Shown: in pieces, positions 5,230-63,225 of the stretch | Layout of the letters: every line of letters starts with the position of its first letter | Position numbering within the stretch: the first letter of the stretch is position 1 | Origin: Azolla caroliniana | Lineage: Eukaryota; Plantae; Polypodiophyta | Direction of reading: 5' to 3' | NCBI GenBank assembly: GCA_043228905.1 | Contig: JBHGNT010000002.1 | Coordinates: forward strand, 5,952,001 to 6,016,000 | DNA: 64,000 nt | The notes under the pieces: model-generated | What the model saw: the letters and a program-made list of their open reading frames with translations, nothing else | Database searches by the model: none | What the model was told of the DNA's origin: nothing | Position numbers and translations under genes: made by a program

Positions 5230-7230
5230 TTGGATATGCCACAATGCCCTCTTCACTGATGATATGGCCAAGTAATGCACCACTAGTTACGTGGAGCACG
5301 CATTTTGCGAGATTAAGACTTTAGTGGACTGTCCGACACTTCTCTAAGCATAGCTGAAGATGATCCAAGTGGTTAGTTCATTTTTTATACACGACGAAAT
5401 CATCTAAAAATACCTGCAGAAAGCCTGGAATGTACTCGCCAAAAATGTCCATGATTATTCTTTGAAACATCGCTAGTGCAATATTCGATCTAAACATCAT
5501 TACTTAAAACGACAAATACTCCCCATTCCATCACATATGTCATCTTTTCCTGATCAGCTGGGTGCATCAGGATCGAATTATACCTGCTAAAGCTGTTGAT
5601 GAAACTGTACACCTCGTGTCCGACTATGGCATCTTGTAACCCGTCAATAAGTGGTAACAGAAATGCATCTGTAATTATCGTCGCGTTCAATTTCCTCTAA
5701 TCCACGCATACCTGGATATTCCCATTTTTCTTTGGCACCATGACAATTGGGCTTAGCCATGTTGGTTGCTTGACCGGCCAAATAAAGTCGACTCCCAACA
5801 ATTTGTCAATCTCCTCTTTTACTTTCGCAACGTAATTTGGGTTCATCCGGTACCATCTTTGCTATAATGGATTCGCATCCTTACTCAAGTGGATCCGATC
5901 CTAATAAAATTTCGGCACGAGCCCCTTCATGTCTTCGTACGACCAAGCAAAGACATCCTTGTACGCCGTCAACAATTCGATCATCATCGTCGTCTCTTCT
6001 AGCTTCATTTTCTTCACAATCTACAACGGTCGAGATGCTATGACGGCTTTCGGATACGGCTCCTGTAATTCTTTGTCCATCTCTGTGTCCTTCCCGAACA
6101 CGTTGTCGTGCCTTTCGGCGATAGGTTGTTGCATGAGTCGTGTGGAAAATGCTAAGGTTTTAGATTAGGATGAGGAGGAGGAGATTTAGATCGATAGGAT
6201 TAAGAACAAATTGAAAGAGAGAGAAATAGGAAATTCGTTAATTCAATGAGTATAGTGTATTATAATAATCAACTCTTTTTAACCCTAATAAATTCCCAAA
6301 GATTCAACAACCAATTACATTTTGCTCCCCTCCTTATATAGTGATAGGAGAGGCTAACTATAGCTTACCACATGGCAAGCATCATGCTTTTTCTTCTAAC
6401 TAAAGTGTTCATGCACACTAGATGTGCATGAGTAGCTTTTTCCTAGAATAATTTCTCTAACTATAGTACTCATGCTTTTTCTAAGTATGTAATTCATGCT
6501 TTTTCTCACTATAGTACTCATGCACCCAATATCCTAGTTGTGCATGACTATGTTTCCTAGAATATATGAGAATAAACTTTTGTACAGCTAAAATCTATTA
6601 TATTAATATTCATGATGTGTTAGTACAATCGTAAGGCATGGGATTTTAACATGGAGGTACAGGGTTTGAATCTTGCCCTGTGCATGTAACATACATTTTT
6701 AATATTTTCTTCTCTTTCTACATACTTATTCAATTAGGTACTCTGTACGCATTTCACATAGTGTGTGAAGTACACTACGACAATGTATGGTGTGACCATC
6801 TCCACCACATCGATTTTGAACAATGAAACTATCTTAGGATTTTCTTCGAGGTACCGGTCCACCTCGTTGGCTAGCCCTTCCATTATATGAATTCCCTCAA
6901 CGTAAAGTGGGGTTTTGTTGCCACGTGATCCTACGTTGGCAATTGAACCTTTGTCTTCCCTTGGTTGAAGCTAATTACGTTTTTTTGCCAATTCTATTTT
7001 ATGTGCGCCGTGTGCAACCAATGTCGACATAACCGTAGTGGGTAAGCTCCCAATGCATCCAATTGTAGAACCACCACCGAAATTTGGAATGGGTATTGTT
7101 GAGAGACAACCTCAACATGAGCGGAATGGTTAAAGCCTAGCAGACTAGATTGGTTGAAGACGCCAACAGTCGAGTCAACGAAGGAGTGAGTGATGCAGCA
7201 CCGGATTCGACACATAGAGATTTCCAAGCC
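5230..7230 (-). pseudogene. Degenerate Gypsy pol remnant (protease to RT) related to element D
   Basis: TDAFLLPLIDGLQDAIVGHEVYSF and QEKMTYVMEWGVFV match D's RT. AYPLRLCRHWLHTAHIK matches D's AYPLLLGRPWLKTANIK. Split by a solo LTR. Confidence 0.8.
6104..6782 (-). mobile_element. Solo LTR of the element-E family
   Basis: Ends TGTCGTGCCTTTCGGCG...TACACTACGACA are the reverse complement of the E LTR termini. Flanks are ACGT and ATGT (4-bp TSD with one C>T change). Confidence 0.85.
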
Positions 7231-7426: not shown

Positions 7427-10400
7427 TGTCGCGAAGATGCGCGCGTGTGTAGCTCGAACGGGACCACCGGGGTCTCTGACTAGCAAGGACGTTTACCAAG
7501 TTATCGAGAAACAATGTTACCTTGACAAGATCAAAAGATTGATGATTATAAGAAGTAGAATAAGAAGAATCAAAGATGAAAGAAGATGAACAATAGAAGT
7601 ATAATTAGAAGAAGAATTTTATATTGATGATGACGATGGTGATGGTGATTATCACCAATTGACCCCCCCAATACTCAAGCCCAACTAGAGGCTTTTATAG
7701 GTCTCTCCATGCTTGTGACATGCACAAAACCATGGGCTAAAACCATGGTTTTGTGTACACGGTTTTGACTTTTTGTTACCTGTGAAATACTGAATATGAA
7801 AAGAAAATATACGAAATGTAAAGCATGTAGTAGTAGCTTTAGTGGTATGATAATTGTTTTTTATCTTAGACGTGCAAGGTTCAAATCCTACTTGCAACCC
7901 TCAAGATGCACTCAGTGCCATCATGTACTAGGTTTATTTATTATTATTTTCACTTTTACAAGTATTTGTGTAATGTGCATGTATCCTCAAATTTTCATTT
8001 TTTCTCGAATTAAACACGCCACATCACGACATCCACCCCCACCAAACTGCACATCCTCTGGCATGTGCCAAGAAGGAAAAGAGTGATGTGGTGGGGCCAA
8101 AGGTTGTCAACATTCAATTTGCTCATTTCTTGTGCCTTGCCCGCACTGTCTTTGTCCCTCCCTTTTGAGCTCGTCCATTCCTTCCAACCGAACCATCATT
8201 GTCAGCCGATCCACCATATCATTCTCTCGCACTTCCCAATGCTATGACCGGTTGACATGCCCCCCTTGGCCCCTCCTCAGCATAACCTTTCACAATTTTT
8301 GTATGTGCCACATTCATCCCGTCTATCTCCTTGGTCAAGAAACTTTGATCCTTCATTCTTTCTCGTCCCCTGCTTGCCTTCACAAGACCTCATTCGAATG
8401 TCGATGTTGACTACCCATTGTAGTTCCTTCAAGCGCATGCTCATCTGGGGGTCTCTAAGAGACCATATTGCATGCCTCTCTTTCATCCATTTGTTGTGGT
8501 AAACTCTCGCATTTGAGTTGATCATCGTACCTTTGATCTTCACACTAGTGTCCTCCCTCATGTTAGAAGACATGATCACTTTCCGAGGTACACCTTTCAA
8601 ATCCTCTTGGCTTGCTTCGCTGTCATTGTCCATTGTCACACTTTCTTTGGCCTCTTTGTTGTGCACATTTGCTTTCGTCGTTGTGCTTCGTTTGGACTCT
8701 TCATCACACACACTGGCTTCATTCTTCGCTTCCTCATAGCCACCTTCCATCTCTGTGGTCTAATGTTGGCTCTCGGGCGCTGCCGAGGTCTCTAGAACAA
8801 GTGTGGAGGAATCCTCTCCATGGTCCTTGCTCGTTCTTGCCATCTTTGGGCCAATGTCATTGTCTATGTTTCCATCATGTGCATCAGCTCTGACCTTCGC
8901 TTCCTCTGTCGCTTGGGTCCCACGTTAATTCTCGGATGCAACTGCCCAAGTCTCTAGAACAAGTGTGGAGGATTCCATACGCCTTTGGACGATCACCTTT
9001 GCCATGTTGTTCATAGCCACCTCCTTGATGTCGTTTTTCGTGGTTACCTCCTTAATCATGTGGGCCTCACACTCTTTATCCTCCTTTATCGTGCAAGGTT
9101 CTATTAGGCTTGCTCCTTCACCACCCGACGTTTCGAACATGACGCGTGTTCTGAAAGATTCTTCGTCCCTTGGACTGGCGTTTGTGTCCTCGATTCATTG
9201 GTTTCATCCTTCCAAGATGAGAAGATGATTTGTTCTGCATTTTCTCTCCTGTGGTACCGCCGTACCGAACTTGAGCCTTTGAATCCACCACTTCCTTAAT
9301 TTGCATTTGTGGAGAGGTCTCTTCTTCCTCAACCATTGTTCGCCTCAGTTTTTGTCCCTTTTGAAGTTTCTCTTGAGCCTCACTTGCGCCTTTAAGTTCA
9401 TGAATGCCTCTTTCATAAAGACTTCTATGTTGAGCATTGTCGAACCTTCCCTCTTCGAGCTTGTTTCCTTCGGTGGTGGCATGTTGCTGCATCTTGTCCT
9501 CCTTCTATCGTCCCTCATCGGCTGTGACATTGTCAACAAGATTCCTATCCTCCTCTTGTCATGTCGTTGGCTTTTCACTTCGGCCCAATTTTCAGTGAGG
9601 CCATTCAGACCATCGTCGTCCTCGAGTTGGACTCCAATGGCCGTCCTTTTCTTCCGATCAATCGACTTGACGAACATTAAGACTTTATTCATCCCCACCA
9701 ATCCTTGTTCCCGCTCCGAGAGTTGAGCGAACCAACACTCAAACTCAATGAATGCATGCATAGCACTCTGATGGGTCTTCCTCGATGACACCCATTGGTC
9801 AAACTTGTATAGACCTCGTCGCTTCGGCTCTTCATGATCATATGCCTCTCGTAAAGCTTCTTCGAAGGACACCCACGAATCGTGAGCTTTTTGATGCTCT
9901 TTCATATCTTTGCAGATTGGTTCAGCCACCACTCGACAAAAGTACTCTAGCCTCATTGCTTCATTTACACATCTTGAATCCATTTCGGCATTGTAGGCCT
10001 CTAGAAAATTTTGGACTTTGCCTCCGTCGAAACAACCGACTTGCTCAACCATGCTTTCAATGGCTTGTTGGGCCGCATCTCGTCTTTTCCCTTCTCTTGA
10101 AAAATCCATTATCATCTTTGACATTGCCTCCATGAGCGATTCCTCGTCCATCTTCATCCTCCTCTGCCGCTCTTCACGTCGGGTTCACGAGAAGATGTCG
10201 CGAAGATGCGTGTGCGTGTGTCGCTCGAACGGGACCACCGGGGTCTCTGACCAGGGAGGACGTTTACCAAGTTATCGAGAAACAATGTTACCCTTGACAA
10301 GATCAAAAGATTGATGATTATAAGAAGTACAATAAGAAGAATCAAAGATGAAAGAAGATGAACAATAGAAGTATAATTATAAGAAGAATTTTATATTGAT

Positions 10401-10859
10401 GATGATGATGACGATGGTGATTATCACCTATTGACCCCCCCATACTCAAGCCCACCTAGAGAATTTTATAGGTCTCTCCATGCTTGTGACATGCACAAAA
10501 CCATGGGCTAAAAACATGGTTTTGTGCACACGGTTTTGCTTATGACATGCACAAAACCATGGGCTTAAAACCATGGTTTTGTGTACACGGTTTTGACTGT
10601 TTGTTACCTATGAAATAATGAATATGAAAAGAAAATATACAAAATGTAAAGCATGTAGTAGTAGCTTTAGTGGTATGATAATTGTTTTTTGTCTTAGACG
10701 TGCAAGGTTCAAATCCTACTTGCAACCCTCAATATGCACTCAGTGCCATCATGTCCTAGGTTTATTTATTATTATTTTCACTTTTACAAGTATTTGTGTA
10801 ATGTGCATGTGTCCTCAATTTTTCACTTTTTCTCGCATTAAACACACCACATCACAACA
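7427..10859 (-). mobile_element. Element F: non-autonomous gag-only LTR retroelement
   Basis: Direct repeats at 7427-8031 and 10196-10859 (the latter has an internal ~55-bp duplication); TSD ACGG on both sides. tRNA-Trp-type PBS at 10174-10190 with one mismatch; G-rich PPT-like tract at 8032-8044 on the minus strand. No RT or integrase. Confidence 0.88.
9345..10157 (-). pseudogene. Gag-like ORF of element F, continuing in broken frames to about 8277
   Basis: Clear homology to the E ORF (FEEALREAYD, FDQWVSSRKTH, VLMFVKSIDRK, LEDDDGLNGLTENW). The FDG motif near the N-terminus is typical of retrotransposon gag. Confidence 0.75.
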
Positions 10860-53638: not shown

Positions 53639-56600
53639 TGTCGTAGTGTATTTTGTACACTACGTGAAAAACGTATATAGTATTAGATTCAATAAAAAAT
53701 GAAGAAATAGAAGAAAATAGCAAAATAAATGGAACATGCATAGGGCAAGATTCGAACCTTGCACCTCCATGTTAATAATGTAATGTCTTACCATTACACT
53801 AGCATTTCATTAGTGTTAAAGCATAGATGTCCCACATAGAAAGGTAAATTCACGCTAGGATAAACATTAGAAAAACGCATAACAAAAGAAAAAGCTACAC
53901 ATACACATCTAGCGTGCATGATAAAAAACGCACAAGTTAGAAAAAGCATGATCACTTTAGATAAAGCATATAGTCTATCTATAGGAAAAGCATGGGGTCT
54001 ATAGTTAGAGAAAAAGCATGGATTACTAAGACTTCCTCATCACTACATAAGGATGGGAAGCACAATGTAATTGTGTGTGAAAAATATTTGGAAACTGGAT
54101 ATGTTTCTAAAAAACACCAATTAATAAACTATACTCGTGGGATTCACGAGAATTCTATATCATTCTCTTTCAACCGAAGTTTATATTCTTATATTCATAT
54201 TGATTAATCTAATACAATACACTCGTGGGATTCACGAGTTTGCTATAACTCTTTCTTACAACATATTTATATTCTTATTAGCCTTAAAACTCTCCTCTTC
54301 CTAGTCCAAAACCCCAGCGGTTCCCACCTGACTCACGCAACGATCTGGCGCCGAAAGGCACGACACAGTTGGTGAACCCGACGTGAAGATGGGTGGCAAG
54401 GAGATGGAGAATCAACAAGAGGCGATGAACATGATGATGATGATGTTCGAGCGGATGCTACAAGAACAACGAGCGATGTCGGAGATCACGGGGGCAGTAA
54501 AGCGGCTCGTACAACGAAACGGGGAATTCAACGGTAAGGGTGTGTCACGCTACCTACGTGAATATAAGGCGGAGATGATGCAATATCGGATACCGGAAGG
54601 ATTGCAAGTGATATCCTTTAACCGGGTGGCCTCGGACGAACTACAAGAGAGAATCCACAAGATACAACAACAAAACTCGACATGGGAGTCCTTTGAAGAA
54701 GCTTTACGAGAGGCATATGACTACGAGAGATCGAAGGGACGAGATCGACGAGAATTCGACGAATGGGTGGCGTCGGAGAAGACTCACCGAAGTGCAACGC
54801 AAGCGTTCCTAGAGTTCGAGCATCGTTTTGCTCGACTCTCGGAGCGGGAACGAAGATTGGTGGGAGGAGATAAAGTCTTAATGTTCGTAAGATCGATCGA
54901 TCGGAAAGAAAGGATGGACATCGGGATCGAACTCGAAGATGATGACGGTGCGAACGGTCTTACCGAGGATTGGGCCAAAGTCGAAAGGGTATGCCGAAGA
55001 CATGATGAAAGGAAGCTGAGAATCTCGTCAACAACGACATGGCCCATGAAGGATGGTCGATTGAGGAAAAACGATGAAGCCAATATGAAGGCCGAAATAC
55101 AACATGATGGTACCACGGGAGAAAGAGTGGAACAAGACACCCACTCGTCTTGTGAAAGAACGATGGCGAAGGATAAGGCCGATAATTCAAGTGTAGAAGG
55201 AAATTTCGGGATACAAGTGCCCGAGACATCGGGTCAAAAAGGGGTAAGCATAATAGATGTTTGCATAATTGATGCAGATAAAGAGTGTGAAGCGGATGTG
55301 ATTAAGGAGGTAGCCACAAAAGACGAAATCGAATCAGAGGTGGCTATGGACGAATCAATGGCGGATTGCCATATCGAGACTTCCCCACCACTGATTCTAG
55401 AGACTCCGGCGGTTGCGTTCGAAAGGCAACGTGAGACCGAAGAGACGGAAAGTGGCGGAGAGAAAACAAAGGTCGAAGTCAATGCATACGACGGAAAGAT
55501 AGCCGAGAATATGGCTATGGGTGAAACAATGGAGGATGATAATACCGAGGATTCCTACCCACTAATTCTAGAGACTTCGGCAGTTGTGTCCGAGAACCAA
55601 CGTGAGACCAGAGAGACGGGAGGTGGCAGCAAGAAAGGTAAAGTCGGAAGCCGGTTCGGATGGAAGGTGATCCGGATGGGATTCCGATCCGAAAGAAAGC
55701 CGAACCGGGTAAAAGAGGATTCGACCGAAAGACGATACAAACGAAAGCCGAACCGGGCAAATGAGGATTCAGCCGAAAGACGACCCGAAAGAAAGCCGAC
55801 CCGAAAAGGGGTCGACTCGGTCAAAACCGATCGACCAAGTCTGACTTGGCCGAACGCGAATATGGATGGAAGCCGACCTAGCCGAAAGCCAATCGGACGA
55901 GACGGATCCGGAAAGAAGCTAATCCGACTCAATCGGAGGTTGGATCGGTCGAGGCTGGTGAAAACGAGGAAAAGAAAGCCAACCGAAACCAAAACCGATA
56001 GATCGAAACCGGGCCGGAAGGAGACCGACTCAATCGAAACCGAACAACCAATTCCGATTCGGCCGAATACGAATCCGATCGGAAGCCGATCAAACCGAAA
56101 GTTGATCAGACAAGAGCGATCCGGAAAAAAATCAAGGTTGATGAAGACAACAAAGAGGCCAGTAAAAGACACTACCACGAATGACAAGGGCCAAGAATAT
56201 GACGAGAGAGAACAAAGAATATGGTGGATCGGATGGCGACAATGGTTCGGGTGGAAAGAATGGGTCAACTCAAAATGGAGAGACAAAGTTGACATAGCGG
56301 GACAAACGGAGGATGAAGGGGAGACAACGAGAATCGGCAACTTCGGCACATACCGGAGGATGTGTGGGTTCGGAGGGGGCGAGTGTCGTATGTTGCGATG
56401 ATGAACCCGACTCTATGCTTAGGCATTGCCGGGAGTCGGGGGTGCACGAACCCGTACTCATGGAGCACACGAGCTACTTCTTGGAACAAGGCGTCATCAC
56501 TGCCCTATGTCCGATACGCTGTCGTAGTGTATTTCGTACACTACGTGAAAAAGTAAAAATAATATAACCGATTTAATTACATATAAATAAATAAAATAAG

Positions 56601-57241
56601 AATATCAAGATATTTATCACGTGCATAGGGCAAGATTCGAACCTTGTACCTCCACGTAGCCAAACCTCAACTTTACCATTATGCTACCTTATCTTTAGTG
56701 TTCTATAAATAGATTTAATAACTATAAGTGCTTTATTTGCGCCTACCTTTATTAAAAGGTAAATCGTGCATTTTTAGAGTGCGTGAATATTTTATAGAAA
56801 AACGCAAGCAACTAAAAAGTGACTCATGCACATCTAGCGTGCATGAGCACTATATTTAGCAAATAAAAGCAAGGATTAGAAAAGCATCACATGCACATTT
56901 AGTGTGCATGAACATATGAGAAAAAGCATGTAGCTATGCTTAGTCTCTCCCATCACTATATAAGGATGGGGAGCACATTGTAGTTTTTGTTGGTTATTTT
57001 TCTATAATGATCAATCAATCTAAAATATTCGTGGGATTCACGAATTTGCTAAAATAATTCTCTCTTACTACCTAAATATTGACTAAATATACTAAACTCG
57101 TGGGATTCACGAGATTCTTATCTTATAACTCTTTATACCTATTCTTTACTAGCCTTATTTGTATTTTTCTTTCTCCTAGTCCAAAACCCCGGTGGTTCCC
57201 ACCCGACTCACGCAAACGATCCGGAGCCGAAAGGCACGACA
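53639..57241 (+). mobile_element. Element E: gag-only LTR-bounded insertion with divergent LTRs
   Basis: TGTCG...CGACA repeats at 53639-54365 and 56520-57241; TSD GCGG; tRNA-Trp PBS TGGTGAACCCGACGTGA at 54370-54386. The host frame GLDPA|FCQHQ is restored on removal. Confidence 0.9.
54389..56401 (+). CDS. Gag-like protein of E with acidic middle and Arg/Lys-rich C-terminal region
   Basis: About 670-aa ORF starting right after the PBS; homologous to the F ORF; no pol domains. Confidence 0.72.
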   Translation: MGGKEMENQQEAMNMMMMMFERMLQEQRAMSEITGAVKRLVQRNGEFNGKGVSRYLREYKAEMMQYRIPEGLQVISFNRVASDELQERIHKIQQQNSTWESFEEALREAYDYERSKGRDRREFDEWVASEKTHRSATQAFLEFEHRFARLSERERRLVGGDKVLMFVRSIDRKERMDIGIELEDDDGANGLTEDWAKVERVCRRHDERKLRISSTTTWPMKDGRLRKNDEANMKAEIQHDGTTGERVEQDTHSSCERTMAKDKADNSSVEGNFGIQVPETSGQKGVSIIDVCIIDADKECEADVIKEVATKDEIESEVAMDESMADCHIETSPPLILETPAVAFERQRETEETESGGEKTKVEVNAYDGKIAENMAMGETMEDDNTEDSYPLILETSAVVSENQRETRETGGGSKKGKVGSRFGWKVIRMGFRSERKPNRVKEDSTERRYKRKPNRANEDSAERRPERKPTRKGVDSVKTDRPSLTWPNANMDGSRPSRKPIGRDGSGKKLIRLNRRLDRSRLVKTRKRKPTETKTDRSKPGRKETDSIETEQPIPIRPNTNPIGSRSNRKLIRQERSGKKSRLMKTTKRPVKDTTTNDKGQEYDEREQRIWWIGWRQWFGWKEWVNSKWRDKVDIAGQTEDEGETTRIGNFGTYRRMCGFGGGECRMLR

Positions 57242-59847
57242 GCGGGATCCAGACCTTTCATATCGTCAAACGACCATGCAAAAACATCTTTATATTGTAA
57301 TAGTAATGTTGTTAATGTCCGTTTGTCATTTACCGTCAAATCTCTAGCAATCAAGACTGTTTTTCTTTCAGCATCCTCTACTCCTGCCAAATCGATCTCC
57401 TCCAATGCTGAGGCTTGCACTCTCTGAGATACCTTCATTTCCTTATCTGTAGCTTCTTGTTGCATTCGTATTTCTTTCATTGTTTGCTCATCGATTGGCA
57501 CTTCTTCGTGTGAGTCTACATATGGTGTTAATGCTTGCAAAATATCTACCTCAAATAGAGGGATGATTTTTTGATTATCATCAAAATACTGACTTTCTTC
57601 TTCCTCGTCCAATCCTTCCATCATATTAACTGCTTCTGCATGTACAGGTAAACTCTGTTTGCTTGTTGTCACTTTGTTGTGCGTCGGAATCCTGACCTTA
57701 TTTTTTCCTTTCCTAAATGTTAGCACATTTTGTTTGCAATTTTGTTTAATATTAGCTGTCTTTAACCATGGTCTCCCCAATAACAAGGGGTATGCTCCCT
57801 GTGTTTCTAACTGCAAAATTACTGCCGAAATCTGAAAACTGTGTCCCCCGATTATTACATCCAGTTGTCGAAGCAAACCAATCGGTCGTACCGTACTTGT
57901 ATCTGCCATTCGTAACCAAAACGGACATGCTTCCCATTCCGTGATTCCCAGTTTTTCACATGTAGTTTTGTTAATCACATTAACACCCGAGCCTCCATCT
58001 ATAATCACATTTCCGATTTCTTGCCCGTAAAGTATTACCTTAATCGACGGATTCTGTTCATCCATGATCGAAGGGTTATTACTTGGCTGATTGTAGTGTA
58101 CTGCTATTTGTTCGGAACCTTTATATGCAATTAATGCTGCCACTTTTTCTGTAAACCTTGGTACTAACTTAAGTAAGCCCGTAAGTGGCAATGACACTTG
58201 GCAATCAGCCAACAGTTTCCAAGTTTCTTCCTGTTCCTTATTCCCCAATGACTGTTGAACAGCGATGTCCTGGTCAATGTTATTGTCTTGTAACATTCGA
58301 TTCACATTACTTTGATTTGCTTCATCCACCCATTCTTTTGCCGCCTTCCGAACTTCTTCCTGAATTTCCCACTCTGATTGTTTGCTTTTGCTGCGTGTCG
58401 TTACTTGCTGAACTTCCGGTATTACCATATTAACTGCTGGACCCTTTCCTTTAACCGGACATTGATTAGCATAATGGCCTAGTTGTCGACAAATGTAACA
58501 AGTGGGCACAAATGTTGCACTGGTCTCTCCATGTGCAAATTGCCCGTTATTAAATTGCTGCTCTTCATTACCATTCGGGTTTTGTTGGTATTGACGTGTA
58601 GCTTTTGGTTTGTAAAATCTCTTGTTTTTATACCGATTCTGCCTAAATTGTTCAGTATTATCATTTGGTTGTGCTATATTGTGTGGTATCCCGAACTCCT
58701 GATTTGGCGGAAAATTACTCTGTTGAAACATTTGATTATTTTGTGGAACGGTTTGAGTATTATGTTGAAAAGTCATATTACCCGGTTGAAATGCCGGATT
58801 TGGTTGAAATGTAGAATTCGGTTGCACATTCGGACAGTTCTGTTGAAACCCTTGAAATGGTGGGTTACCTTGTTGGAAACTTTGATTATTTTGTTGAAAA
58901 TATTGATTCGGATTCTATACGAATGGTGGGTTGGATTGAGCAAAACCTGGTTGAAATGCTTGAGTCACTTGAGTGGGTTGCATATTTTGTTGTGAAAAGA
59001 TCTGATTTGGCTGTAGAACCGGATTCTGTTGTACATTTTGCTGATTTTGTGAAAAATTATTATTTTGATAACCATTGAACAGATTAGTGTTATTTTGTTA
59101 ACCATTGTCAGCAAAAATTTGTCGTATTGACGCCGTAGTCTTATTAAGCAGATTATATTCACATTGTTCTACGGAATGTAATTTTGAATGACATATTGTA
59201 CAATGTGTTCTTAACGTACAGTCAATTGCCGAATGCCCCGTATTTAAACAAGTGGTGCATTGAACTGCTTGTCGAAATTGTAACTCCTCCATTGTTGGTA
59301 ATGTACGGTGTAATGCCGACATGTCCATACTCTGAACATTGACCGGTGGTCGACCCATTTCTATTGCTTTATCAATGACTTGTTCGATAGTCTGATTTCG
59401 AAAATCGAACACTTTCAATGTCGTCCTTAATGGTTCTTTTACAGCTTCTAGAAAGACTTCTTTTAATTCCTTATCCGGAATCGGCCTTGAAATCTGAAGC
59501 TGTAAGTTCTGAAATCGTATCACAAACTGAGATACTGTTTCATTTTTTTCTTGATATAACGCATAAAATTGCGCAATCAAATCCTTCTGCGGAATTTGTT
59601 GATGAAATAATTGTAAAAATTTACTAGTTAATACTTCAAAGGATGGAAATCCTTGAAGACCGTTCTGCGCAAACCAATTAGCAGAATATCCGTCTAATGA
59701 TAAGACGAACTCAGCGATTTTTGACTTATCTTCGGCATCTGCCGACAATCGCTGAGCTCCATGGTTAATCTCCCATGTCGTTAAGAAATCCCTAACATGT
59801 GCTTCTGCATCTGTTCCTTCCCGGAACTTAGAATAAGTATAAGGCAT
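57242..59847 (-). pseudogene. Element D gag (Q/N-rich linker, knuckles) and protease, broken
   Basis: LYQEKNETVSQFVIRF, CTTCLNTGHSAIDC, CYICRQLGHYANQC, IIDGGSGVN and LLLGRPWL motifs. Confidence 0.88.
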
Positions 59848-60533: not shown

Positions 60534-62797
60534 ATGGACCCGGCAAAAGTCCAAACAATATTGGAATGGAAACCCCCATGCTCAGTTCGGGATGTCCAGT
60601 GTTTCCTCGGATTTGCGAACTTCTATCGCAAATTCATACATAATTATTCAACCATTGTGTTGCCCCTTACTCAACTCACCAAGAAAAATCAAGCATTTTT
60701 TTGGAGTATCGAAGCGGACAAGGCTTTTACGCAGCTGAAAGAGGCATTCACATCAGCACCCATCCTAGCACATATTGATCCTGAAAAGCCATTTACTATT
60801 GAGGCGGATGCATCAGACTTTGCATTGGGGAGTATCCTATCGCAACCAGGCGAGGACGGGCAGATACATCCAGTCGCGTTTCACTCGAGAAAATTTACTG
60901 TTTCGGAGATAAACTATGGGTGCATGACAAGGAGTTCTAGCTGTGGTCGACTCGTTCGAGCAATGGCATCATTTTCTAGAAGGATCACCTCATCAGATTA
61001 TCATTTATAGTGATCACAAAAATTTCACATATTTTCAAACAGCTCGAGTATTAAATAGACGACAAGCTCGGTGGGCCCAATTTCTAACGCGTTTCAATTT
61101 CAAGATCATTTTTTGCCCCGGAAAACAACAAGGGAAAGCAGATGCTCTGTCTCGGCGTTCATATCTAGCACTTTGACCTGGAGATCTGTCCTTTGACAAT
61201 CAAAAGCAAACTCTCCTCGGGCCATCAAAGCTACAGGTAACAACAATTTATGCCACACCACTTGATTCTACCCTTCTTGACACTATTCGGCAACAACTTC
61301 ATTCGCATGATTTTGCTAAGGATGTCTTAGCCCACTGTGGTTCAAGTCGTCCATCTTGCTCCACATTGCCAGGGTCATCTCAACATTATCAGGACTTCAA
61401 GTGGCAAGATGGTTTACTCTTCTACAAGAATCTCCTTTACGTCCCCGACGGATCACCCCGACTTCAAGTGTTGGAACATTGTCATGATGCCCCCATGGCT
61501 GGACATTTTGGTATTTCCAAGACCATTGAGCTGGTGAAACGTTCGTTTTGGTGGCCTCACTTGCAAAAATTTGTCGAAGATTATGTTTGCACTTGTGACA
61601 CCTGCTGTCGCGCCAAAATACCCCAGCATCACCCTTATGGCTTACTACAACCATTACCCCCTCCCAACAAGCCATGGCAGTCTATTTCTATGGATTTCAT
61701 TACCAATCTGCCACCTTCCAAAGGCTTTGATACTATTTTAACAGTAGTGGATCGGTTCACCAAGATGGCACATTTTGTACCATGTGTAAAGACCATCAAT
61801 AGTGAAGAAACTGCAGATCTCATTATGCGTGAAGTGTTTCGCCATCATGGTCTCCTGAATGATATTATTAGCGATCGAGGTCCTCAATTTATCTCACACT
61901 TTTGGAAGCACCTATGGGCAGGCCTCAAAATCTCTTGCAAACTCTCTTCAGCTTATCATCCACAAACTGACGGACAAACAGAGCGCACAAATCAAACGCT
62001 CGAGCAATATCTTGGATGTTTCATTAGTTATCAACAAGATGATTGGAGTAAAATTTTACATCTTGCCGAGTTTGCATACAACAACACGGTCCACTCTTCT
62101 ACCAAAGTTACACCTTTCTTTGCCTACACCGGCAACCACCCTCGATGGTGTATACTGGATCTTCCCGAGGTGTCGCGAAACCCTAGTGCGGTGCATCATC
62201 TCCACCGACTACAACAAATCCAGTTCGAGTTATCGTCACATCTTCAGAAAGTGCAAGCACACCATAAGACCAATGCCGATCGACATCGTCTTAAGTCTCC
62301 GTTTAAGGTTGGTGACCGTGTATGGTTGCTTCGTCGTCACATCAAGACTACCCGACCGTGTGCTAAGCTTGACTATCAACGCTTAGGTCCTTTTGTCATC
62401 ACGGCGCAGATTAATGATGCAACATTTTGTTTTAACCTTCCTACACATGCGGCTTCACCTTGTCTTTCATAGCTCTCTTTTGGAACCTTGCCACACCTCT
62501 TTAATTCCTAATCGTGTCGTGCCACCACCGCCTTCTGTACAACTTGTGGACGGCCCCGAATATGAGGTAGCTGCTATTCTCGATTCTAAGATTGTGCGCA
62601 ATAAGCTTTATTACCTAGTTGATTGGCTTGGTTATCCTCCGAGTGATCGCACTTGGGAACCCATCGATAACGTTTGTAATGTTGAAGCTTTGGTCAACGA
62701 CTTCCATCGTCACTATCCAAACAAGCCCGGCCAAACAATGTTAACGCCGACTTCCACTCGGCGTTCTCGAAGGAGGGATAGTGTCATGAACACATGA
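60534..62797 (+). pseudogene. Element A RT end, RNase H, integrase and chromodomain
   Basis: FLGFANFYR, IEADASD, ISMDFIT, SDRGPQF; chromodomain EYEVAAILDS...YYLVDWLGY...TWEP. Confidence 0.93.
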
Positions 62798-63225
62798 CCA
62801 TTATGGCGTCACCTGGACTTGAACCTCGAACCATGTAATTCATACTTGAAAACCTCAACCATTAAGATAGTTTATTGCTATATGAAACAATAAAAGCTAC
62901 TTCTTATATTACATTGATTATTGTAAAAACTCTAGATTATTCTAGAATGTTCTAGAATGTCCTAGAGCATTCTAGGTCTAGAACATTCTAGAACATTCTA
63001 GAAATCTCTAAGCTATTCTATGGGAACCTATAAATAAGCGCATACATGTATTCTCAAATCAATTCGAATCAACACCAGTCTTTAGCTCTCATTACATATC
63101 TTATATCCATTCTCTTTCTTTCTCTATCTTATACATCCATTCTTCTCTTAGTATTTAATTCCTTTCTTCTCGTGTTCTCTAATATCCTTCTTCCATCACT
63201 CTATCTTTTATCCTTGGTTCTGACA
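62782..63225 (+). repeat. Element A 3' LTR (444 bp)
   Basis: TGTCA...TGACA; the last ~220 bp match 13430-13650. Confidence 0.93.
62930..63005 (+). promoter_or_regulatory. Heat-shock-element-like array in the A LTR
   Basis: Alternating nGAAn/nTTCn units (TTCTAGAATGTTCTAGAA, GAACATTCTAGAACATTCTAGAA) just upstream of TATAAATA. Confidence 0.6.

Follow-up and report, generated by a model that had tools for sequence, protein, structure and literature searches.

Antisense tRNA-type A/B-box modules in the LTRs of Gypsy retrotransposons of Azolla caroliniana as candidate TFIIIC sites

Element E and other LTRs of the window

The DNA analyzed here (the window) is a stretch of 64,000 nucleotides from Azolla caroliniana, an organism with a genome of 523 Mb, and consists of a nest of LTR retrotransposons. 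One of these, element E, occupies positions 53639-57241 under a single GCGG target-site duplication (TSD). Its 5' half resembles subfamily E1 (96-98%) and its 3' half resembles subfamily E2 (96-99%), and the element is a chimera of the two. The two LTRs of E differ because of this chimerism, and not because the spacer changes rapidly within one element.

An initial annotation proposed that both E LTRs carry the A and B boxes of a tRNA-type Pol III promoter in U3, on the strand opposite to the element. We refer to this arrangement as the module. Modules were scored by using a weight matrix trained solely on tRNA genes of this genome (91 in total, with organelle-type genes among them), and scores were compared with those of 200 shuffles. 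The relevant features, with LTR limits and the primer-binding site (PBS) as read in the sequence, are as follows.

6104..6782, minus strand: E-clade solo LTR
6621..6672, plus strand: decayed module, antisense to the solo LTR; 15.2 bits, 1/200 shuffles
7427-8031, minus strand (element on minus): A 3' LTR
7834..7887, plus strand: module of the A 3' LTR; 23.5 bits, 0/200 shuffles
10196-10859, minus strand (element on minus): A 5' LTR
10662..10715, plus strand: module of the A 5' LTR; 23.5 bits
53635..53638, plus strand: TSD of E, GCGG (4 bp, NCGN), found again at 57242-57245
53639..54365, plus strand: E 5' LTR (LTR1); subfamily E1, young, at least 40 copies at 99-100% identity
53699-53694, minus strand: T6 run in LTR1
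53722..53725, minus strand: first T4 run in LTR1, 23 nt beyond the B box; possible Pol III stop
53749..53801, minus strand: module of LTR1, from T8 at 53801 to C61 at 53749; span 53 nt
53801-53791 (A box) and 53758-53749 (B box), minus strand: boxes of the LTR1 module; 30.1 bits, 0/200 shuffles
54043..54051, plus strand: TATA-like box of LTR1; predicted Pol II promoter, putative function
54370..54386, plus strand: PBS of E
56520..57241, plus strand: E 3' LTR (LTR2); subfamily E2
56634..56686, minus strand: module of LTR2; 27.8 bits, 0/200 shuffles
62782..63225, plus strand: F LTR, Tcn1-like chromovirus family
62816..62869, minus strand: module of the F LTR, span 54 nt; 23.9 bits, 0/200 shuffles

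Both boxes are present where they had been proposed in LTR1 and LTR2 (30.1 and 27.8 bits). The decayed copy claimed for the solo LTR also exists (15.2 bits), with its decay consisting of G18C, C56T and a 1-nt deletion, and the same antisense arrangement, claimed for families A and F, was found in both (23.5 and 23.9 bits). The antisense strand of family H scores 33.1 bits. With the same matrix, genuine host tRNA genes that we sampled score 11-37 bits, mostly 26-37. Out of 200 shuffles, none reached the score of E1, E2, A or F, one reached that of the solo LTR, and no scored LTR had more than one. By the same comparison, sense strands gave no significant score, and no signal above chance was seen on either strand of LTRs C, D (two copies) or G.

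The TATA-like box of LTR1 lies about 240 nt from the A box, with the two directions opposed. The PBS is one that we take to be of the tRNA-Trp type. The position of the T4 run in LTR1 is not conserved in other families.

Several other features of these LTRs were observed. A third LTR-like sequence of 137 nt (56384-56519) lies between the PPT and the 3' LTR of E, and a conserved inverted repeat occupies the extreme start of E-clade LTRs (window 53642-53665). The E1 spacer (window 53774-53801) resembles the reverse complement of its own A box and can form a 10-bp hairpin. CATGCA repeats are abundant between the module and the TATA-like box in E2, H and K (window 53870-54040; L093:1560-1690; L348:680-880); these resemble RY elements, the targets of B3 factors.

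Carrier lineages and prevalence

Carriers of the module are elements of 3-8 kb with gag or gag-pol ORFs, and they have the module in both LTRs. Families E, A, H and K generate 4-bp NCGN TSDs, and none of four pol ORFs of this group matches Chromo. By these two properties, they match the published description of Phygy, which prefers NCGN target sites (PMC6317226), and we therefore call them Phygy-like. Families F and M have an integrase chromodomain (PF00385, E 1e-13 and 3e-13) and, instead of a TGG-type PBS, a self-priming-type site; on these grounds they match the published description of Tcn1-like chromoviruses. The sequence that follows the M LTR has 12-nt complementarity to the LTR just past the TATA box, and priming is predicted. 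Reverse transcriptases (RTs) of Phygy-like and Tcn1-like carriers are about 25% identical. For the Phygy-like carriers, the named RT relatives come from Riccia and Adiantum. Autonomous carriers that are intact or nearly so occur in both lineages (L348, L349, L347). The carriers are like the Phygy and Tcn1 lineages (PMC6317226, PMC2864245) and RLG1 of P. patens (PMC7466625), of which family M may be the counterpart, in their target sites, their priming signals and their chromodomain state. However, the portions of these descriptions available to us report no tRNA-like or Pol III sequence in the LTRs, whereas the carriers here have the module.

In all LTR families examined, the module is antisense and lies 110-270 nt upstream of the TATA-like box. 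The initial annotation placed it within about 200 bp of the U3 end. E, A, F and M conform to this rule, whereas H (610) and K (about 230 and 396) exceed the limit.

Pattern searches of the genome returned 1,284 matches with a strict pattern (against a reversed control), 813, 324 and, for family M, 2,215, with 0 in the control in each case, and 1,341 matches to the intact E/H-type B-box pattern were counted. In 1.05 Mb of targeted loci, 468 matches reached at least 20 bits, true tRNA genes included, versus 11 on reversed sequence; no free SINE source was seen among these 468 matches. Thousands of LTRs belonging to two Gypsy lineages carry the module, with autonomous elements among them.

To avoid circularity, LTRs for estimates of prevalence were chosen by features outside the module. 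The E-type U5 end was used to pick 30 loci; 5 were truncated or rearranged, and the remaining 25 have an LTR with a recognizable start. Of these 25, 24 carry the module, and the other is deleted through it. LTRs picked by the Tcn1-type LTR end have it in 27 of 30 cases. The module is therefore not a sporadic insertion in either group, a possibility that had been raised at the outset. Among LTRs picked by the U5 end of K, a sense module lies 3' of the TATA-like box in all 25, and antisense modules, one or two per LTR, are present in 24.

Loci picked by the PBS only gave a different result. The module was present within 1,100 nt upstream in 4 of 30, and the dominant, GC-rich family R, the commonest Phygy family (26 of the 30 PBS-picked LTRs), lacks it, which rules out a module that is universal in Phygy. 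Phylogenetically, R is placed with H (98/98), and monophyly of the four module-bearing families is rejected (p-AU 0.0005). Since R lacks the module and is nested among module-bearing families, the module is dispensable, and either R has lost it or it was acquired on more than one occasion.

Metagenome contigs contain 44 pattern loci that are 68-94% like repeats of this genome. These were selected by the module itself and probably come from one study. A PBS lies 423-566 nt away in the antisense arrangement in 5 of the 44, and in the sense arrangement in 0. Viral contigs gave 0 pattern matches.

Several families have unusual arrangements. Family K (L348:283-1380, L307-L331; 389 U5 pattern matches) is autonomous and Phygy-like and has three different modules per LTR: two are antisense in U3 and one, in sense orientation, lies about 130 nt beyond the TATA-like box, such that the promoter is bracketed by outward-facing boxes. 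In the very abundant Tcn1-like family M (L346, L347), the module ends about 15 nt from the LTR end. Other LTR families have their own antisense modules (L018:866-1060, with two in tandem; L130:311; L095:5339; L359; L376). One A subfamily (L160, L161, L164 and L179, near 1456) has a sense A-box-like motif before a near-palindromic B box that, read from the other strand, has a C56 mismatch. Outside LTRs, an A/B module is also carried by a dispersed repeat that is about 860 bp long, has a CTAGT end (L386:1344-2204; L386-L400) and is possibly Helitron-like. Additionally, we observed large tandem tRNA clusters with many degenerate copies, namely Lys(TTT), Arg(TCT), Ile(TAT) and Thr(TGT) (L031, L048, L215, L225, L227-L229).

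Conserved features of the module

The module has the layout of a type 2 Pol III promoter, with A and B boxes at tRNA spacing. As had been claimed, this spacing is tRNA-like: the span is 52-54 nt, versus 53-55 nt in 86 of the 91 host tRNA genes. It is 53 nt in 24 of 24 E-type modules, whose LTRs are 590-1,109 nt long, and 52-54 nt in the 22 scoreable of 23 family representatives.

Across E subfamilies, the boxes are better kept than the spacer, in agreement with the initial annotation. Among 10 E-clade representatives, identity is 0.84 in the A box and 0.89 in the B box, compared with 0.62 in the spacer and 0.52-0.66 in the U3 flanks; it is also high in the 10 nt before the B box (0.83) and the 15 nt after it (0.86). 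The contrast with the rest of U3 depends on how gaps are treated, in that the A- and B-box identity is attained by 1 and 0 of the 286 other U3 windows when gaps count as mismatches, and 33 and 19 of 286 equal or exceed it when gaps are ignored. For 9 representatives of M, identity is 0.94 in the B box and 0.72 overall, and the A box is kept no better than this background (0.74).

The B box offers a separate view of selection, because it contains a CpG whose decay yields C56T or G57A. C56 is invariant in the B box, and G57A is tolerated by tRNA genes; both purines occur at position 57 among the tRNA genes of this genome. C56 is kept in 21 of 22 scored representatives, the exception being a single decayed copy. 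No multi-copy representative has T56, and A57 is fixed in several families. We counted by eye the matches that form both-LTR pairs (same strand, same clade, 2-8 kb apart), leaving out one mixed-subfamily G57A pair, one pair separated by 12.5 kb and three short internal duplications. Among the first 100 matches listed per class, 21 intact, 4 C56T and 14 G57A pairs were present. The difference between C56T and G57A has a Fisher p of 0.011 (0.015 without 14 A-type rows), with the qualification that most G57A pairs come from one E2 sublineage, and the pair counts are thus not independent. These observations suggest that selection acts on the B box in transposing lineages, and we conclude that the module is real and widespread and is probably under selection. 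Genome counts for the three classes are 1,341 intact, 675 C56T and 505 G57A. The C56T change is thus no rarer in origin than G57A, and the decay of the CpG is skewed by strand, despite fixed G57A in some families.

Features that an RNA product would need are kept poorly. Over 22 representatives, the acceptor, D, anticodon and T stems have on average 2.5 of 7, 2.2 of 4, 2.0 of 5 and 3.5 of 5 pairs, compared with 2.9, 1.6, 2.0 and 2.0 expected by chance and 6.5, 3.6, 4.5 and 4.8 in 74 genuine tRNAs. The T stem is partly kept, counting the G53-C61 pair of the box itself, and the other stems are near chance. The cloverleaf is therefore not kept, which rules out a functional tRNA gene. ARAGORN found no tRNA in the window, and Rfam found no tRNA match in the whole window. 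A pseudo-tRNA match to RF00005 had been expected, but the E1 module scores 13.4 bits over model positions 8-63 (cut-off, 29), and the H module has no match to this model. The first T4 downstream of the module lies 3-1,369 nt away among family representatives, such that a terminator is not conserved. Folding gave two hairpins for E1 (z -2.9) and, for M, one long hairpin in which the B box pairs with the spacer (z -4.0); E2, A and F fold no better than shuffles (z -0.2, 0.2 and 0.8). A shared RNA fold is ruled out, because the E1 and M folds differ, and E2, A and F do no better than shuffles. Stems at chance except for the T stem and such variable distances to T4 point to a DNA site rather than an RNA product. 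What is kept are the features read by a DNA-binding factor, not those needed by an RNA.

In H1, K and N, the resemblance to host tRNA-Arg(TCT) or tRNA-Gln extends beyond the boxes into the spacer (1, 2 and 0 of 300 shuffles), suggesting that these modules descend from tRNAs. For the E1 and F spacers, a tRNA origin is indistinguishable from shuffles (56 and 187 of 300). We also considered the module as a self-supplied primer, but its 3' end does not match the PBS.

Candidate roles and known systems

We propose, with a probability of roughly 0.5, that the antisense A/B boxes are a TFIIIC site that keeps the chromatin of the adjacent Pol II promoter open or acts as a barrier. In brief, the boxes in U3 would bind host TFIIIC, and the host does encode TFIIIC B-block domains. 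TFIIIC recruits TFIIIB upstream of the boxes (PMC13578239), and TFIIIB would thereby be loaded on the side that faces the Pol II promoter. Chromatin beside this promoter would be kept open, and the site could serve as a portable barrier against silencing, to the transcriptional benefit of the element. With the boxes antisense, Pol III would be directed away from the element body, and, as reverse transcription copies U3 to both ends, each new copy would have the site in both LTRs. In fission yeast, tDNAs and bare B boxes both block heterochromatin (PMC2040200), and the chromodomain element RLG1 of P. patens resides in heterochromatic islands and is still transcribed (PMC7466625). The two lineages with RTs about 25% identical both place the module antisense in U3. 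We offer more tentatively, as possible rather than probable, the broader proposal that unrelated LTR lineages repeatedly recruited tRNA boxes as portable TFIIIC barriers that shield a Pol II promoter in heterochromatin.

An active Pol III gene, whose outward antisense or small RNA, or whose transcription, matters as in foamy-virus U3, would be consistent with the retention of both boxes at tRNA spacing, the AT-rich DNA upstream of the module, the T4 located 23 nt downstream in E1, and the hairpins of E1 and M. However, E2, A and F fold no better than shuffles, the distance to a terminator ranges from 3 to 1,369 nt, and a transcript of F or M would exit the LTR within about 35 nt into flanking DNA. 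The initial suggestion of an outward-RNA source is therefore weakened, and we regard it as unlikely. A passenger role, in which a tRNA or SINE fragment was captured once or a few times, then spread between families by U3 swapping and was kept through hitch-hiking or as a Pol II factor site, appears quite unlikely to us. The tRNA-like spacers of H1, K and N, the thriving of family R without a module, the similar module in a non-LTR repeat, and the other U3 motifs that are equally conserved when gaps are ignored are compatible with it, but conserved boxes around a diverged spacer, a span fixed among indel-rich flanks and the asymmetry between C56T and G57A are not readily expected of a passenger. 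Moreover, each family has its own spacer with the same boxes, and modules are duplicated in K and N.

Barrier activity in yeast is independent of orientation (PMC2040200), and therefore a barrier alone does not account for the orientation bias of the module. This bias is better explained by direct activation of the divergent Pol II promoter through TFIIIC or TFIIIB, which might, for example, supply TBP or a nucleosome-free region and would not act as a barrier. Such activation fits the head-to-head arrangement of module and promoter, with 110-270 nt between module and TATA-like box, in every LTR family examined. Because this distance varies more than twofold and K has an additional sense module downstream of its TATA-like box, we consider direct activation improbable. 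A landing pad for tDNA-targeting retrotransposons is very improbable: homology upstream of the module is lost within 150 nt at 19 of 281 module sites with at least three family mates, and these 19 breaks have no common distance and, on inspection, no inserted LTR ends.

The predicted TFIIIC site has partial precedents. Helenus/TRIMp3 elements (Kojima 2024, PMC10886601) also have a tRNA-like LTR sequence that is conserved at boxes A and B and is mostly a non-functional tRNA. However, they are non-coding TRIMs of 311-1,263 bp for which transcription from the Pol III promoter is proposed, whereas the carriers here are gag-only or gag-pol elements of 3-8 kb from two lineages, with a TATA-like box and boxes that are antisense in E, A, H, F and M (K has one extra in sense). 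According to the same source, autonomous partners of Helenus must use Pol II promoters, and "not a few" Repbase LTRs contain parts of tRNAs; non-TRIM cases are not described in its available text. Cassandra and Ajax TRIMs (PMC10886601, PMC12786077) likewise have a Pol III promoter in plant or animal LTRs, but they are non-autonomous, and their promoter is of the 5S type and drives their own RNA (shown for Cassandra), whereas the module is of the tRNA type. The miRNA units of simian foamy virus (PMC3993851) are Pol III units in the U3 of an autonomous element, as here, but they have defined hairpins and terminators, whereas neither fold nor terminator is conserved in the module. Fission yeast tDNA and B-box barriers (PMC2040200) place TFIIIC boxes at the edge of a domain, which is the mode proposed here, but they are host loci, and the boxes here are on a mobile element. 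The initial annotation knew of no description of such modules. In the available text of these sources, tRNA boxes in LTRs are known for Helenus and Pol III units for foamy-virus U3, and only the antisense form in autonomous plant elements was not found described, in a literature survey that covered the available main text of articles. The available text of PMC13570524, PMC12786077, PMC9540200, PMC2864245 and bioRxiv 10.1101/2023.05.19.541548 contains no such arrangement.

The module bears on how chromoviruses remain transcribed despite insertion into heterochromatin. Several thousand LTRs carry candidate TFIIIC sites, with pattern matches numbering 1,341 for the intact E/H type and 2,215 for the M type, and the module-less sister family R provides a natural control. 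According to the text available of PMC13578239, no Pol III barrier has so far been described in plants. If the portable-barrier reading is true, then the module would represent an anti-silencing strategy that requires no protein of the element, would be the first barrier of the tDNA type in plants, and would supply mobile TFIIIC sites by the thousands.
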